Below, piece by piece: positions 6,461 through 58,335 of a stretch of DNA of 64,000 nucleotides. The DNA is from Bacteroidota bacterium. GTDB taxonomy: Bacteria > Bacteroidota > Bacteroidia > Chitinophagales > CAIODY01. The notes under the pieces are model-generated. The model saw only the letters and a program-made list of their open reading frames with translations. It made no database searches and was not told where the DNA came from. The stretch lies in contig JBJOOR010000009.1 of the NCBI GenBank assembly GCA_046051225.1, forward strand, positions 40,835-104,834, read 5' to 3'. Each line of letters begins with the position of its first letter. The stretch's first letter is position 1. The translations under genes were made by a program, and so were the position numbers.

Positions 6461-7486
6461 ATGAAAAAGACAGCCTTTAAATATAAAATTGATGACAAAG
6501 TATGGTTGATACATACTGCCGAAATTGGCATTGTGAAAGACTTTGTGAATATGCACATGCTTAAAATTCAATTGGATGAACAAAATATTGTTCCTGTATT
6601 TATAGATGATTTAGAGTTGTATAAAGAGCAAGATGCAGTGCAATCAGAACCCGAAATGGTTGATTCGAAACAAATACTATCTGAAGCGGAATTGTACTTT
6701 ATCAAAAATCAAAACAATATTGAAACTGGTTTACATCTTTCATTTTTGCCTGTTGAAATTGATGAGCAACATTTTTTTGAAATGATATTGGTAAATGATA
6801 CCAATGATGATGTACAATTTCAAATAAAATTAAGCCTGAATAATGAATTGTATATGCATTTAAAAAATCGGTTAAATAGGCGATATATCTATCGTTTGGG
6901 CGATTTGGCTTTTGATGAATTAAATGAAAATCCATTAATTGAAATTACTATCGAACATAATTCGCATCCATTATTTCAATTATCAAAAACAATAAAACTA
7001 AAACCAAAATCATTCTTTAAAGATTTATCATCAACGCCAATTTTAAACGAATCGGCTTATAATTATCAATTAGGATTATTACTAAATCAATCAGAAAGCA
7101 GAAATAAAGAAATTGAAATTAATACCACTTTAGTAAAACATGTGGAACGAAAAATAAAAGAAAATTTCAAGAAACCACAACCCGAAAAACACAAACATTT
7201 TTATATTGATGATACGATTGATTTGCATATCGAAAACTTGATTGATAGCCATGCAGGCATGACCAATGCTGAAATTATTAAAATTCAATTACAGCATTTC
7301 AGAAAATGTTTTGAAGAAGCAATGATTCATAAACTAACTAAATTTACAGTAATTCATGGCATTGGCAAAGGCAAATTAAGAGCCGACATTTGGTTGATTA
7401 TTAAAGAGTATAATGCGGTAAGAAGTTTTAAAAATGAATTCCATCCATTGTATGGATTTGGTGCTACTGAAATATTTTTTCGGTAG
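6461..7486 (+). CDS. Smr domain-containing protein (DUF2027-like N-terminus)
   Basis: C-terminal Smr signature IDLHIE...VIHGIGKGKLRADI. Confidence 0.7.
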   Translation: MKKTAFKYKIDDKVWLIHTAEIGIVKDFVNMHMLKIQLDEQNIVPVFIDDLELYKEQDAVQSEPEMVDSKQILSEAELYFIKNQNNIETGLHLSFLPVEIDEQHFFEMILVNDTNDDVQFQIKLSLNNELYMHLKNRLNRRYIYRLGDLAFDELNENPLIEITIEHNSHPLFQLSKTIKLKPKSFFKDLSSTPILNESAYNYQLGLLLNQSESRNKEIEINTTLVKHVERKIKENFKKPQPEKHKHFYIDDTIDLHIENLIDSHAGMTNAEIIKIQLQHFRKCFEEAMIHKLTKFTVIHGIGKGKLRADIWLIIKEYNAVRSFKNEFHPLYGFGATEIFFR

Positions 7487-13565: not shown

Positions 13566-13626
13566 TAGTTATAGAGAATCTGTGCTCTGGCATTGCTTGG
13601 TTCAAAAAAAATGAAACAATTTTAAA

Positions 13627-13661
13627 AACTAACAACCTTGTTAGTTACAACTTTGTTAGTT
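13627..13661. repeat. left 35-bp inverted repeat flanking the ATPase gene
   Basis: AACTAACAACCTTGTTAGTTACAACTTTGTTAGTT. Its reverse complement matches 14825-14859 at 33 of 35 positions. Confidence 0.85.
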
Positions 13662-13668
13662 ATCTTTG
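13661..13668 (+). promoter_or_regulatory. -7 promoter box TATCTTTG
   Basis: TAnnTTTG match abutting the left inverted repeat, 16 nt upstream of the ATG at 13685. Confidence 0.5.
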
Positions 13669-13684
13669 TTGAAAATTAAAATAA

Positions 13685-14824
13685 ATGAAAGCCCCATTTA
13701 ATTTCGGCAAAGTAATAGAAGGCGCTTACTTCACCAATCGCACCAAAGAAATGAAGCGATTGGAACAAAACTTCATCAATCAAACCAACACTGTTTTAAT
13801 ATCGCCACGTCGGTGGGGAAAATCATCTTTGGTAAAAAATACTGCCGATAAATTAATCCGCAAAAACAAAAAATACAAAGTGGTTTACATTGATTTATTC
13901 AATGTGCTGAATGAAGATGAATTTTATAAAGAGTTTGCTTATCAGGTCATCAAAGCCACTTCCAACAAAATGGAAGAATGGCTGCATACAGCTCGACAAT
14001 ATTTAAGTAGGCTAAAACCATCTGTTTCATTCGGCGATGTGCCAGGCGCTGAAGTAGAATTGCAATTGCATTTGCCCGAAATCAAAAAAAACTACAAAGA
14101 TATTTTGGATTTGCCCGAGGCTATTGCCAAAGAAAAAGGCATCACCATTTTAGTGTGTATTGACGAGTTTCAAAACATCGAACGCTTTACAAAAGAACAT
14201 GTGGCTTTGCAAAAAAAATTAAGAGCACAATGGCAATTGCAACAGCATGTAGTTTATTGTTTGTATGGCAGCAAACGCCACATGATGATGCATTTGTTTG
14301 AATCGGCTTCGATGCCGTTTTTCAAATTTGGCGATGTGTTTTATTTAGAAAAAATAAAGAAAGAACACTGGCTGCCTTTTATCGAAAAACAATTTGTAGA
14401 AACTAAAAAATCCATAACCTCACAACAAAGCGAAAAGATTGTAGAGTTAATGAATATGCATCCGTATTATGTACAACAACTGTGTCAGTTAGTTTGGTTG
14501 AATACTGATAAAAAAGTAACAGATGCTATCATTACTGACTCTTTGCAAGATTTAATTGAACGCAATAATTCTTTATTTCAACGCGATTTTGAATTGCTAA
14601 GTGAAACGCAAATAAATTTTTTAAAGGCACTTACTAGCGGCGAAACAAGTTTTTCATCGCAAAAAGTTTTACATCAATATGGCATTGGCACATCAGCCAA
14701 TATTCCACGTGTGATAAGCGCTTTGGAGGATAAAGAGATTATTAATAAAACAGGGAAAAGTATCGAATTTGCTGACCCAGCTTTTGAAATTTACTTCAAA
14801 CAAATTTATCATCTTCATTCCTAA
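13685..14824 (+). CDS. ATP-binding protein, Arch_ATPase/DUF234-type AAA ATPase
   Basis: Walker A-like SPRRWGKSSLV and Walker B VCIDEFQ. The size and C-terminal helical/wHTH-like tail are typical of COG1672-type ATPases. Confidence 0.8.
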   Translation: MKAPFNFGKVIEGAYFTNRTKEMKRLEQNFINQTNTVLISPRRWGKSSLVKNTADKLIRKNKKYKVVYIDLFNVLNEDEFYKEFAYQVIKATSNKMEEWLHTARQYLSRLKPSVSFGDVPGAEVELQLHLPEIKKNYKDILDLPEAIAKEKGITILVCIDEFQNIERFTKEHVALQKKLRAQWQLQQHVVYCLYGSKRHMMMHLFESASMPFFKFGDVFYLEKIKKEHWLPFIEKQFVETKKSITSQQSEKIVELMNMHPYYVQQLCQLVWLNTDKKVTDAIITDSLQDLIERNNSLFQRDFELLSETQINFLKALTSGETSFSSQKVLHQYGIGTSANIPRVISALEDKEIINKTGKSIEFADPAFEIYFKQIYHLHS

Positions 14825-14859
14825 AACTAACAATGTTGTAACTAACAATGTTGTTAGTT
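14825..14859. repeat. right 35-bp inverted repeat flanking the ATPase gene
   Basis: AACTAACAATGTTGTAACTAACAATGTTGTTAGTT. Starts on the first base after the TAA stop. Confidence 0.85.
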
Positions 14860-14949
14860 TTTGAAATTAGCTACTCTGTAATTTAGTTACACAAAAGCTT
14901 TATTCTTAATTTAATGCCTTGCTAAATTGATAATTTTTTATTACACATC

Positions 14950-33310: not shown

Positions 33311-33868
33311 GTTGTGTGTTTTATAGAGTAAGTTGTGTTTGTGTATTTGTTGTTAGTTTTTAATTTTCATTTTCTGATTTTTGATTAACGATTGTTGTCG
33401 CCACTTTTCAATTTTAATAGGTTATTAATTATTTTGGGTTGTGTTATTGTGTTGTGTGTTTTGTGTGTGTTTGGTTTTTCAAAATTGTATTTCTAATTTT
33501 TGGTAGCGATTGTTGTCGCCATTTTTATTTTAATGATTACCTACTATTCATAAATTTCTTGCTTCCATATTTTAGCGATTGTAGCCGCTATACTATAGTT
33601 TGGGTTAAATCAAAAATTGGGTTTCAGTTTTTTTGTTCACTTAAATTATTTTTTTTATTGCATGTATGTAAGGTTGTTTTAAAAGGTTAAAATAGATTTT
33701 CTGATTACTAAATTCGTTACGTTTCTTTCATGTTTTAGATGCAGCAATTGTAGTTGCTTATAATTTGATTTAGGTTAAATAATAGGGTTAATAGTTTTGG
33801 TGAAGCAAAGTTTTTTTGTTTCGCTAATTTTGATTTGGCGATTGTTGTCGCAATAAAATGGGTTTAAT
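33311..33868. repeat. array of five same-orientation hairpin-containing repeat units plus two TG-rich tracts
   Basis: Core copies: 33387-33403 (ACGATTGTTGTCGCC), 33504-33522 (AGCGATTGTTGTCGCC), 33573-33590 (TAGCGATTGTAGCCGCTA), 33741-33758 (GCAGCAATTGTAGTTGCT), 33837-33854 (GGCGATTGTTGTCGCAAT). Blocks 33371-33418 and 33490-33534 are near-identical. TG-rich tracts at 33311-33356 and 33436-33474. Confidence 0.8.
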
Positions 33869-53335: not shown

Positions 53336-54451
53336 ATGAGATTCATCATTCAATTTTTTAGAATAATAGTAGGCGCATTGTTTTTATTCAGCGGCGCTAT
53401 TAAAGCCAACGACCCAATGGGTACGAGTTATAAACTGCAAGAATATTTTACCGTATTCCACATGGGTTTTTTAAATGGCATTACCGATTATCTTTCAATT
53501 GCATTTTGTGGATTAGAAATAGCTTTAGGTTTTGCTTTGTTAATAGGTGCATTTAGTCGCATAACTACGTTAGCATTAACGGGCTTGATTATATTTTTTA
53601 CTTGGCTTACTGGCTACTCTGCCATGACAGGTAAAGTAACCGACTGTGGCTGCTTTGGCGATTTTATTCACCTTGAACCTACCACATCATTTTATAAAGA
53701 TATTGTATTACTAGTTTTATCAATTGTGTTATTGTTGGGCAGAGATACCATTAAACCATTGTTTGCTGGCAAATGGAATAATTTTGTTTTGGTGTTGTTA
53801 GTTGGTGCATCTTTCTTTTTGCCAATATGGGCGTTTATGCATTTGCCTGTGATAGATATGTTGGCTTATAAACCTGGTAATAATATTAAAGAAAAAATGA
53901 CTTTGCCACCTAATGCAAAACAAACTATTGTAAAAACTGTATTCATTTGTAAGAATAAAAAAACAGGCGCTGTTGAAGAAATGGCTTCGGAAGATTATGT
54001 AAAAAAATATCAAGATTACGATTACATGGATAGAAAAGATAAAGTAATTCAACAAGGTGATAAGCCCGAAATACATGACTTTGTGATATTTGATGATAAC
54101 AACCGCCAAGTGCAAGATAGTTTATTAAGCATTCCTACTTATTGTTTTTGGGTGGTGGTATATGATGTTACAGATGCCAACAAATCATGTTTTACAAAAA
54201 TAAATGCATTGGTAAAAAATTGCGATGCACAGCATATTCCAGTAATTGGTTTAACCCATAGCGATTATAAAACTGCCGAACCATTTAGGCACGATGTGCA
54301 AGCAGCATTTCCGTTTTATTATGCAGGCGATGATAAATTTGTAAAGACCATGATGAGAAGTAGCCCAGGTATTATGCTAATGAAAAATGGAATTGTAATT
54401 AAAAAATGGCATTATAATGATGTGCCCACTTACGACGAAGCAATTCGATAA
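53336..54451 (+). CDS. DoxX-like membrane domain fused to a thioredoxin-like C-terminal domain (BT_3928-like)
   Basis: N-terminal ~170 aa with four TM helices of DoxX type (FRIIVGALFLFSGAIKAND) and a soluble C-terminal domain. Confidence 0.6.
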   Translation: MRFIIQFFRIIVGALFLFSGAIKANDPMGTSYKLQEYFTVFHMGFLNGITDYLSIAFCGLEIALGFALLIGAFSRITTLALTGLIIFFTWLTGYSAMTGKVTDCGCFGDFIHLEPTTSFYKDIVLLVLSIVLLLGRDTIKPLFAGKWNNFVLVLLVGASFFLPIWAFMHLPVIDMLAYKPGNNIKEKMTLPPNAKQTIVKTVFICKNKKTGAVEEMASEDYVKKYQDYDYMDRKDKVIQQGDKPEIHDFVIFDDNNRQVQDSLLSIPTYCFWVVVYDVTDANKSCFTKINALVKNCDAQHIPVIGLTHSDYKTAEPFRHDVQAAFPFYYAGDDKFVKTMMRSSPGIMLMKNGIVIKKWHYNDVPTYDEAIR

Positions 54452-57084: not shown

Positions 57085-58335
57085 ATGATTCAAGTTTTTA
57101 AATTCGGGGGGGCTTCGGTTAGGGATGCAAATAGTATAAAAAATGTATCCTCCATTATTTCAAAATATTCTTCAAAACCTTTATTAGTAGTAGTCTCGGC
57201 ATTAGGTAAAACAACCAATGCTATTGAAAAAATAACGCAACATTGGTTTAAAAAAGATACCACAACTGCCATTGTATTGTTACAGCAATTAAAGCAAACT
57301 CATCTTCAAATAATAAAAGATTTGGAATTAGATGAAACCATTATTGATGATTTATGTAAACAATTGGAAGATAAATTAAATCAATCGCCATTTACTATCT
57401 ACGATTTTTATTACGACCAAATGGTAAGTTTTGGCGAATTATTATCTACCACAATTGTAACAGCATATCTGCAAAAATGCAGTATTAATGCGCATTGGAT
57501 GGATGCAAGAACATTAATAAAAACGGATGCTAACTATCGTGATGTAAATATTTTATGGACAGAAACCGAAAAAAATGTAACCCATAATTTGTTGCCTTTA
57601 TTAAATGAAAATAAAATTATTATCACACAAGGTTTTATAGGTTCAACCAAAGAAAATTTCAGCACTACATTGGGCAGAGAAGGCTCGGATTATTCAGCTT
57701 CCATTTTTAGTTATTGCTTAAATGCTGAATCAATGAGCATTTGGAAAGATGTACCAGGGGTGATGAATGCCGACCCTAAACAATTTGCTGATGCTGAAAT
57801 TATTTCAGAATTAAGCTATTACGAATCGATAGAAATGACATTTTATGGAGCAAAAGTGATACACCCCAAAACCATAAAACCAATTCAGAATAAAAAAATT
57901 CCATTACATGTAAGATCGTTTATTGATACGGATAAAATGGGAACTATCATTTCTGAAACGGATAAATTTATTCCTTATCCAGCTATTAAAGTTTTAAAAG
58001 AAAATCAGGTTTTGATGAGTATTCAAACCCGTGATTTTTCATTTATTGGTGAAAAACATTTACAAAAAATATTCGAAGTATTTGCTACTTACCGTATTAG
58101 AATGAATGTGATGCAAAATGGTGCTATCAGCTTTAGTTGCTGCGTTGATGCCAACGACAGAATAAACGAAGCGGTAGATGCTTTACATTTTGAATTTAAA
58201 GTATTGCTTAATGAAGGTTTAGAATTGGCTACCATTAGGCATTACAACGATTCAACAATTGCAGAATTAATCAGCGGAAAAGAAATTTTGGTAGAACAAA
58301 AATCACGACATACCATTCAGTTTGTGTTGAAATAG
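57085..58335 (+). CDS. aspartate kinase
   Basis: N-terminal VFKFGGASV and GREGSDYSA motifs, with C-terminal ACT-like repeats. Confidence 0.9.
   Translation: MIQVFKFGGASVRDANSIKNVSSIISKYSSKPLLVVVSALGKTTNAIEKITQHWFKKDTTTAIVLLQQLKQTHLQIIKDLELDETIIDDLCKQLEDKLNQSPFTIYDFYYDQMVSFGELLSTTIVTAYLQKCSINAHWMDARTLIKTDANYRDVNILWTETEKNVTHNLLPLLNENKIIITQGFIGSTKENFSTTLGREGSDYSASIFSYCLNAESMSIWKDVPGVMNADPKQFADAEIISELSYYESIEMTFYGAKVIHPKTIKPIQNKKIPLHVRSFIDTDKMGTIISETDKFIPYPAIKVLKENQVLMSIQTRDFSFIGEKHLQKIFEVFATYRIRMNVMQNGAISFSCCVDANDRINEAVDALHFEFKVLLNEGLELATIRHYNDSTIAELISGKEILVEQKSRHTIQFVLK

Follow-up and report, generated by a model that had tools for sequence, protein, structure and literature searches.

The window analysed here, a 64-kb stretch of DNA from a Bacteroidota bacterium (contig JBJOOR010000009.1), carries a gene for an AAA+ ATPase of the PF01637 family bracketed by two similar arrays of short DNA boxes. 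On balance, we consider it probable that each repeat is a copy of the operator array belonging to this ATPase family, and that together they enclose a self-regulated, relocatable module that has no dedicated transposase. The ATPase most likely binds the upstream boxes through the recognition helix of its winged-helix domain, and would oligomerise along the 15-bp-phased array to repress its own promoter, which the boxes overlap. The downstream array would most likely have two roles, as a terminator composed of a hairpin and a U-run, and as a second binding platform that forms a roadblock or loops with the promoter array at a distance of 1.16 kb. The two arrays would insulate a self-contained 1.26-kb module (~13617 to 14876), for which recombination between or at the arrays, together with illegitimate recombination, are the likely routes of relocation. 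A preliminary description of the locus had proposed a mobile or invertible cassette, or paired operator sites; the operators and a discrete relocating unit are retained here, while the marks of a transposon or of inversion are not.

The cassette is built from the following features, numbered by position in the window:

13617-13626, outer extension CAATTTTAAA of the left repeat; blastn homology with the relatives L123 and L124 has its left limit here, beginning at 13617, and the inverted-repeat arm begins at 13618.
13627-13661, forward strand, upstream array (left 35-mer AACTAACAACCTTGTTAGTTACAACTTTGTTAGTT), with boxes AACTAACA at 13627-13634, TGTTAGTTACA at 13639-13649 and TGTTAGTT at 13654-13661, and spacers ACCT and ACTT.
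13661-13668, forward strand, match TATCTTTG to the -7 promoter box, which fits TAnnTTTG and abuts the last upstream box.
13685-14824, forward strand, gene of the 379-residue AAA+ ATPase (PF01637), with the ATG at 13685 and the TAA stop at 14822-14824.
14823-14861, forward strand, terminator-like RNA hairpin of the downstream array, with a 17-bp stem and a 5-nt loop AACUA (14840-14844), followed by UUUUU.
14825-14859, forward strand, downstream array (right 35-mer AACTAACAATGTTGTAACTAACAATGTTGTTAGTT), with boxes AACTAACA at 14825-14832, TGTAACTAACA at 14837-14847 and TGTTAGTT at 14852-14859, and spacers ATGT and ATGT.
14860-14876, right extension TTTGAAATTAGCTACT common to the relatives, delimited by alignment, by blastn homology ending at 14873, by comparison of ends and by the junctions in L051 and L124.

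Each 35-mer, the letters of which were read directly, is composed of three boxes separated by 4-nt spacers, which gives a period of 15 nt. A complete box has 11 nt and reads TGT-TAGTT-ACA or, as its complement, TGT-AACTA-ACA. In each array, the two outer boxes always face each other symmetrically, and the middle box alone distinguishes the left array (TAGTT) from the right one (AACTA). The downstream middle box TGTAACTAACA is flipped relative to the upstream array, and the downstream array begins at the base after the stop codon. When the left 35-mer is reverse-complemented, it agrees with the right 35-mer at 33 of 35 positions, and a repeat search of the window extends the inverted repeat to 44 nt with 93% complementarity (13618-13661 with 14825-14868). 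The same search aligns the two copies in direct orientation with 81% identity over 37 nt; they match in both orientations because each 35-mer is a quasi-palindrome. TAnnTTTG is the -7 promoter consensus of Bacteroidota, and a putative -33-like TTG is located at 13638-13640 inside the upstream array.

The 9-mer AACTAACAA occurs eight times in the window, compared with 1.07 expected copies, and none of 100 shuffled sequences contained eight. Six of the eight copies are inside the two repeats. The remaining two, at 33350-33358 (TTGTTAGTTTTT, intergenic) and 53795-53803, are isolated, and we take them as chance occurrences since they have no second box nearby. No further full box or array was found outside the cassette in the 64 kb. 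The preliminary description was accurate in reporting two 35-bp inverted repeats built from copies of the 9-mer, the -7 box at the end of the left repeat, and the right repeat directly after the TAA. Its exact unit of repeat, promoter, gene and repeat holds as a discrete unit but not in its limits, as the unit common to the relatives reaches slightly beyond the repeat ends, from ~13617 to 14876.

The ATPase open reading frame passes the PF01637 model ATPase_2 (Arch_ATPase) with 45.5 bits against a cut-off of 33.2, and covers model positions 1-225 of 225. The protein contains a Walker A motif (P41-R-R-W-G-K46) and a Walker B motif (D160-E-F-Q-N164), the GK and DE residues of which are invariant in 47 homologues. 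The AlphaFold2 model (pLDDT 89.9) is formed by an AAA+ core, a helical lid and a C-terminal winged helix, in which the predicted recognition helix spans residues 337-349 and the β-hairpin wing residues 353-362. The PF01637 score and the model confirm the earlier assignment of an orphan Arch_ATPase gene with a C-terminal winged helix-turn-helix-like domain. The top Foldseek matches are the structures 2qen and 2fna (E-values 5e-14 and 8e-13), aligned over the full length with TM-scores of 0.65-0.72, and a profile of the ATPase homologues matches both chains. Complexes of Orc1/Cdc6 with DNA follow directly, with TM-scores of 0.47-0.55.

The left repeat is not peculiar to the window locus; sequence comparison identifies it as a promoter array found throughout the family of these ATPases. 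We scanned one genome per species for the 20-nt palindrome AACTAACANNNTTGTTAGTT and found at least 119 loci. In 22 of the 119 loci listed, an ATPase homologue with 42-85% amino-acid identity directly adjoins the motif, which in nearly all of them is positioned 25-80 nt upstream of the ATPase ATG. After the palindrome, these 22 loci have another one to four direct boxes spaced by 15 nt, up to a TAnnTTTG box. The genomes belong to Chitinophagales, Cytophagales, Bacteroidales and Ignavibacteria. The three-box arrangement is present upstream of homologues that are 42-93% identical.

To avoid the circularity of sampling by motif, we also collected loci starting from the protein: 14 loci from IMG/VR, three metagenome loci and four protein-database proteins (L125-L149). 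These homologues also have 15-nt-phased repeats or palindromes beside TAnnTTTG, but with other words. A homologue from a metagenome-assembled genome labelled Aminicenantes carries the same words as the window, AACTAACA and TGTTAGTT. Self-similarity peaks at a lag of 15 in about 37 of the 41 non-redundant upstream regions compared, against about 2.2 from shuffled sequence. The last box is within a few bases of the TAnnTTTG box in most homologue loci.

An alignment of the predicted recognition helices, not corrected for phylogeny, reveals that the box word shifts clade by clade along with the helix. The pairs of helix and word are:

Helix GTSANxxR, box word TGTTAGTTACA, including the Aminicenantes homologue.
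Helices TSANISA and NSANVQS, box word TTCTTAGTAAG.
Helix TSANVLK, box word GGTAAGTTACT.
Helices SSPTSVAR, SSTTSISR and SSPTMISR, box words TGTTATTACA, TGTAGCAACA and TGTTATATCA.
Helix GAPRTITK, box word GGTATA / TATACC.
Helix GTSGNASK, box word GGTATGCTACT.

As expected of an autoregulatory operator, the boxes overlap the gene's own promoter and co-vary with the DNA-binding domain that the gene encodes. The array accompanies the gene from phylum to phylum and changes when the helix does, which is most simply read as binding of the ATPase to its own promoter array. We infer that the ATPase would autoregulate its expression through this array.

The downstream array is present in the clade of the window, which comprises the window locus, L001, L002, L094, L110, L123 and L124. 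Two distant homologues, L063 and L102, have a degenerate or displaced downstream array, and the other homologues have none. Third-codon-position identity among the window locus, L124, L001 and L110 is 51-70%, which places synonymous sites near saturation, and every box position of both arrays is identical in the clade, while the 4-nt spacers differ. The identity of the boxes despite this divergence, together with the variation of the spacers, indicates that the downstream boxes are selected as boxes and not merely as a hairpin. Folded as RNA, the downstream array reaches -18.3 kcal/mol (z = -5.3), and none of 200 shuffled sequences folds as well; the upstream array folds less well, at -12.6 kcal/mol. 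The loop of the downstream hairpin corresponds exactly to the middle pentamer. With these features, the downstream array has the appearance of a second binding platform as well as the shape of a terminator.

The orientation of the downstream middle box varies within the clade. It is flipped in the window locus, L002 and L110, and has the same direction as the upstream array in L001, L094, L123 and L124. The direct and the inverted downstream copies differ in the 5-nt hairpin loop alone, and at least two independent loop flips are needed because of the protein identities among the relatives. Stem-loop DNA is known to mutate by small inversions of the hairpin loop. Judged from these sequences, the mirror-image orientation in the window is incidental and set by the 5-nt loop. 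The argument of the preliminary description that mirror-image copies speak against two unrelated terminators fails, given the direct copies in L001, L094, L123 and L124.

The cassette occurs in three genomic contexts:

Context 1, the window: a 207-residue open reading frame without assignment, the cassette, and a patatin gene.
Context 2, L001, L002, L094 and L110: a large gene, the cassette, and genes of AHSA1 and an amino-acid kinase.
Context 3, L123, L124 and L128: a separate neighbourhood.

Homology between the contexts begins at most 10 nt from the left array and fades 17-28 nt beyond the right array. The right-hand boundaries are ragged: they extend ~17 nt beyond the array in the window and ~28 nt in L001/L110, and in L124 they take in at least 110 nt of foreign flank with a TspO fragment. 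The right extension (14860-14876) is homologous to the 5' untranslated region of a TspO gene, which in L051 and L124 comes after the array. In L051, a solo array is positioned 19 nt upstream of an intact TspO gene, and this array and the 5' end of TspO are 84.6% identical over 143 nt to the right array and truncated TspO fragment of L124. A 23-nt stretch left of the cassette in the window (13588-13610) matches L051 at 22 of 23 positions, as a short-word blastn match in reverse complement, at a similar distance from the array; weak when taken alone, this match may mark an ancestral left flank. The comparison of L051 with the filled loci shows the gene and one array present or absent between shared flanks, as expected from recombination between arrays or from integration at an array.

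The closest pair of cassettes, those of the window and L124 (93% amino-acid identity), are in different contexts, whereas those of the more distant L001 and L110 (82%) are syntenic. The preliminary description had suggested comparing the intervals upstream of the patatin gene in relatives and looking for target-site duplications. In L150, L151 and L152, a patatin gene 79-93% identical to that of the window has no cassette upstream, so the absence of the cassette is established for these relatives. A readable insertion junction is not, since the whole region upstream of the patatin gene differs; homology begins only at 14924-14934, and the three loci were rejected as a clean empty site. The locus of L110/L002 was likewise rejected as an empty site within the window: the orthologue of the aspartate-kinase-type neighbour of L110 is found at 57085-58335 with no cassette, and synteny ends directly after it. 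No target-site duplication was found at the homology boundaries of the three contexts. No tRNA genes that could serve as attachment sites were found near the cassettes, and a search of Rfam over the cassette and the flanks of L124 returned nothing meaningful. From these comparisons we conclude that the module relocates, and is gained and lost, as a whole, without any recognisable transposon mechanism.

A non-autonomous mobile element could account for the same contexts. In this scheme, the 44-nt repeats would be terminal inverted repeats that a transposase or recombinase from elsewhere recognises, with the ATPase as cargo or as an accessory protein. The tight left-hand homology boundary in all three contexts agrees with it, as do the differing contexts of the closest pair, the relatives with a similar patatin gene but no cassette, and the solo arrays in other genomes. 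We nevertheless regard such an element as unlikely. Target-site duplications are absent, the right-hand boundaries are ragged, and no other copy of the array is present in the 64 kb. No transposase or recombinase was detected among the 46 window open reading frames scanned against Pfam (46 of 52 with at least 150 residues), in agreement with the preliminary description. The relative orientation of the ends is not conserved, with four relatives carrying direct copies, and the upstream array has no downstream partner across most of the family. The apparent empty site in L089, considered as an excision footprint by comparison with L047 and L069, is a plain deletion of the open reading frame that fuses the 5' untranslated region of the ATPase gene to the next ATG. 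For related reasons, the cassette was not classified as an insertion sequence (no target-site duplication, no transposase in the window, no further array in 64 kb), as an integron gene cassette with attC (solitary in every context, no integrase present), or as a REP/RAYT system (REP, repetitive extragenic palindrome), because the encoded protein is an AAA+ ATPase and the repeat is found nowhere in the 64 kb but at the two ends of the gene.

Arrays of several boxes with the same word but no adjoining ATPase gene are present in four other Bacteroidota genomes (L051:7234-7273, L074 ~7172-7207, L115:2507-2541 and L089:2886-2922). They may have been left behind by loss of the gene, or the regulator may act on them as further targets. 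In L124, and also in L123 and L128, a 117-nt direct repeat with 91% identity surrounds the cassette (L124:3658-3774 and L124:5286-5402). Its copies are 158 and 97 nt from the cassette, and the second one cuts TspO after 29 codons. The repeat has no match in Rfam and is absent from the other loci compared. Its two copies may delimit a segment of 1.6 kb that was moved along with the cassette.

A more far-reaching possibility is that the module is selfish. Oligomers of the ATPase would synapse the two arrays and drive excision of the gene with one array and its integration at solo arrays, such as that of L051, so that the module would spread without a transposase; thousands of PF01637 ATPases would then each have a private, 15-bp-phased operator code. 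We consider this proposal improbable, and more so than a conventional non-autonomous element.

The arrays might instead be generic AT-rich hairpin terminators or REP-like elements, in which case their mutual likeness and placement would be meaningless. Both arrays do fold into hairpins with flanking A-runs and T-runs. Furthermore, about 90 of the 119 listed loci matching AACTAACANNNTTGTTAGTT are AT-rich hairpins that stand alone in unrelated genomes, and many of these resemble terminators. Against this, 22 of the 119 loci adjoin an ATPase homologue, in three phyla. In addition, the boxes are conserved and the base pairing is not, the boxes keep a 15-nt phase and abut the -7 box, the word shifts with the recognition helix, and the array is not dispersed in the window. 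Generic hairpins are thus a very improbable explanation of the repeats.

Slightly less probable still is an Orc1/Cdc6-like initiator, for which the arrays would be iteron-like origin elements, or elements like origin recognition boxes, of a small integrated replicon. The idea draws on the Foldseek ranking, in which Orc1/Cdc6-DNA complexes come right after the two archaeal ATPases, and on the palindrome and direct repeats at the gene's own promoter, which recall iteron plasmids. However, the module is located amid chromosomal housekeeping genes, and the plasmid or phage relatives of the ATPase are distant (21-41% identity). There is no AT-rich unwinding element between the arrays, because they flank a coding sequence, and no Cdc6 or ORC model is among the Pfam matches of the ATPase. 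An invertible, phase-variable segment flipped by a site-specific recombinase at the inverted repeats is the least credible explanation: a long inverted repeat does bracket promoter and gene, but both are inside the same segment, so that inversion would not switch expression, no recombinase gene is among the scanned open reading frames of the window, several relatives have direct copies, the syntenic relatives (L001, L002, L094 and L110; L123, L124 and L128) share one orientation of the cassette to its flanks, and no relative compared has the cassette inverted relative to them.

Several observations weigh against the interpretation of the repeats as operator arrays of a self-regulated module. 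The link between protein and DNA comes from co-variation and co-transfer among phylogenetically related sequences. The 15-bp spacing of the boxes is at odds with a simple helical repeat that would place them on the same face of the DNA. The only visible target of the putative regulator in the 64 kb is its own gene. As most homologues have no downstream copy, the role of that copy is not essential to the family. The terminator function of the downstream array is weakened by L124, in which the hairpin contains a 2x2 internal loop, the spacers are unpaired and there is no compensatory change that would keep the stem paired. A consensus terminator scan also did not call the downstream hairpin, because its stem is AU-rich and the scan requires G-C pairs.

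By analogy, the system would be of a known kind, an autoregulated DNA-binding protein with an operator array. It is unusual in that the partner is an AAA+ protein, the phase is strictly 15 bp, the words differ between clades, and a second array closes off the gene in the clade of the window. The proteins PABY2304 (2qen) and SSO1545 (2fna) belong to the same PF01637 family and have the same succession of AAA+ core, lid and C-terminal winged helix. They differ from the window ATPase in sequence (18% identity), and the bacterial clade described here is accompanied by phased boxes in a defined array. Archaeal Orc1/Cdc6 proteins in complex with origin recognition boxes (2qby, 2v1u) are also AAA+ proteins with a C-terminal winged helix and recognise repeated dyad-like boxes beside their own gene. 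In contrast, the boxes in the window flank a coding sequence instead of an unwinding element, on a bacterial chromosome with housekeeping neighbours.

DnaA is an AAA+ protein with a C-terminal helix-turn-helix that oligomerises on arrays of DnaA boxes and represses the dnaA promoter. The window ATPase has a different DNA-binding fold and other boxes, spaced by 15 bp; its gene is non-essential and patchily distributed, with no associated origin. Iteron-binding Rep proteins, such as RepA of pPS10 and RepE of F, are winged-helix proteins that repress their own promoter at an inverted repeat and bind nearby direct repeats of the same word. However, Rep proteins lack an AAA+ domain, iterons are ~22 bp long and helically phased, and the window cassette bears no sign of a replicon. 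RAYT genes are flanked by inverted REP hairpins that are thought to be recognised by the encoded HUH Y1 transposase. The window cassette resembles them as a single gene between two palindromic repeat copies, but REPs are dispersed in tens to hundreds per genome, whereas the window array is found only at the gene in 64 kb. The regulators MalT and IniR (STAND/AAA+) also join an ATPase module to a DNA-binding domain that acts at promoters. They are 800-900 residues long, contain sensor repeats and a LuxR-type helix-turn-helix, and activate other operons, unlike the window ATPase, which has 379 residues, no sensor domain, and its own gene as the sole visible target. The N-terminal ATPase domain of IniR has been modelled on SSO1545 (PMC5760070).

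In the literature searched, we found no function, DNA target or promoter operator array reported for the PF01637 family, including for the proteins of 2qen and 2fna, and these two solved structures bear only generic names. The family is large, with 4012 clusters at 50% identity (E up to 0.001) among 1.84 billion representative proteins. The phased array at the gene's own promoter, with a word that tracks the recognition helix, gives this family a testable handle: the DNA target of any member would be predictable from sequence alone, and the pairs of protein and operator form a natural set that is potentially orthogonal. The arrays are thereby a starting point for asking what PF01637 ATPases do. 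The insulated two-array module of the window clade would be a useful case of single-gene movement without a transposase. Overall, the regulatory reading of the locus is better supported than a transposon or an invertible switch.

The neighbours of the ATPase gene are thiC, two small open reading frames without assignment, and a patatin-like gene. All recognisable open reading frames among the 46 scanned are housekeeping genes. A search for known defence systems with PADLOC gave just two weak matches (E = 2e-4 and 2e-3). Fourteen ATPase homologues with 39-46% identity are on IMG/VR contigs labelled viral. The Aminicenantes homologue (L145:392-1049) adjoins a HepT-like/nucleotidyltransferase toxin-antitoxin pair and a DUF433 gene, a neighbourhood of the kind typical of variable genome regions. 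A second gene in L147 was considered as a tandem paralogue and rejected.

The homologues P0001 and P0002 are annotated with 395 residues, compared with 379 in the window, and their called start is 16 codons early, in or just before the upstream array. As a result, operator sequence is translated into a spurious extension at the N-terminus. In L001 (P0002), the early start is an ATG inside the array, and the same 395-residue open reading frame begins with TTG at L124:3953. In L136, a different palindrome, CTACTACGAAAAATAGTAG, followed by TAtcTTTG, is located ~100 nt after the ATPase stop; by its sequence, it resembles the promoter element of another gene with a similar kind of self-regulation. 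Another orphan ATPase (AAA_14 and DUF4143, 397 residues) is encoded between the MFS transporter and patatin genes of L151 (L151:3616-4809), and in L152 (L152:1879-2156) these two genes are adjacent with no ATPase gene between them. The AAA_14/DUF4143 ATPase gene has its own palindrome, TGTAATGTACAGATTACA, beside TAtcTTTG. An orphan ATPase gene with a palindromic promoter element is thus present upstream of a patatin gene in two lineages, those of L151 and the window.

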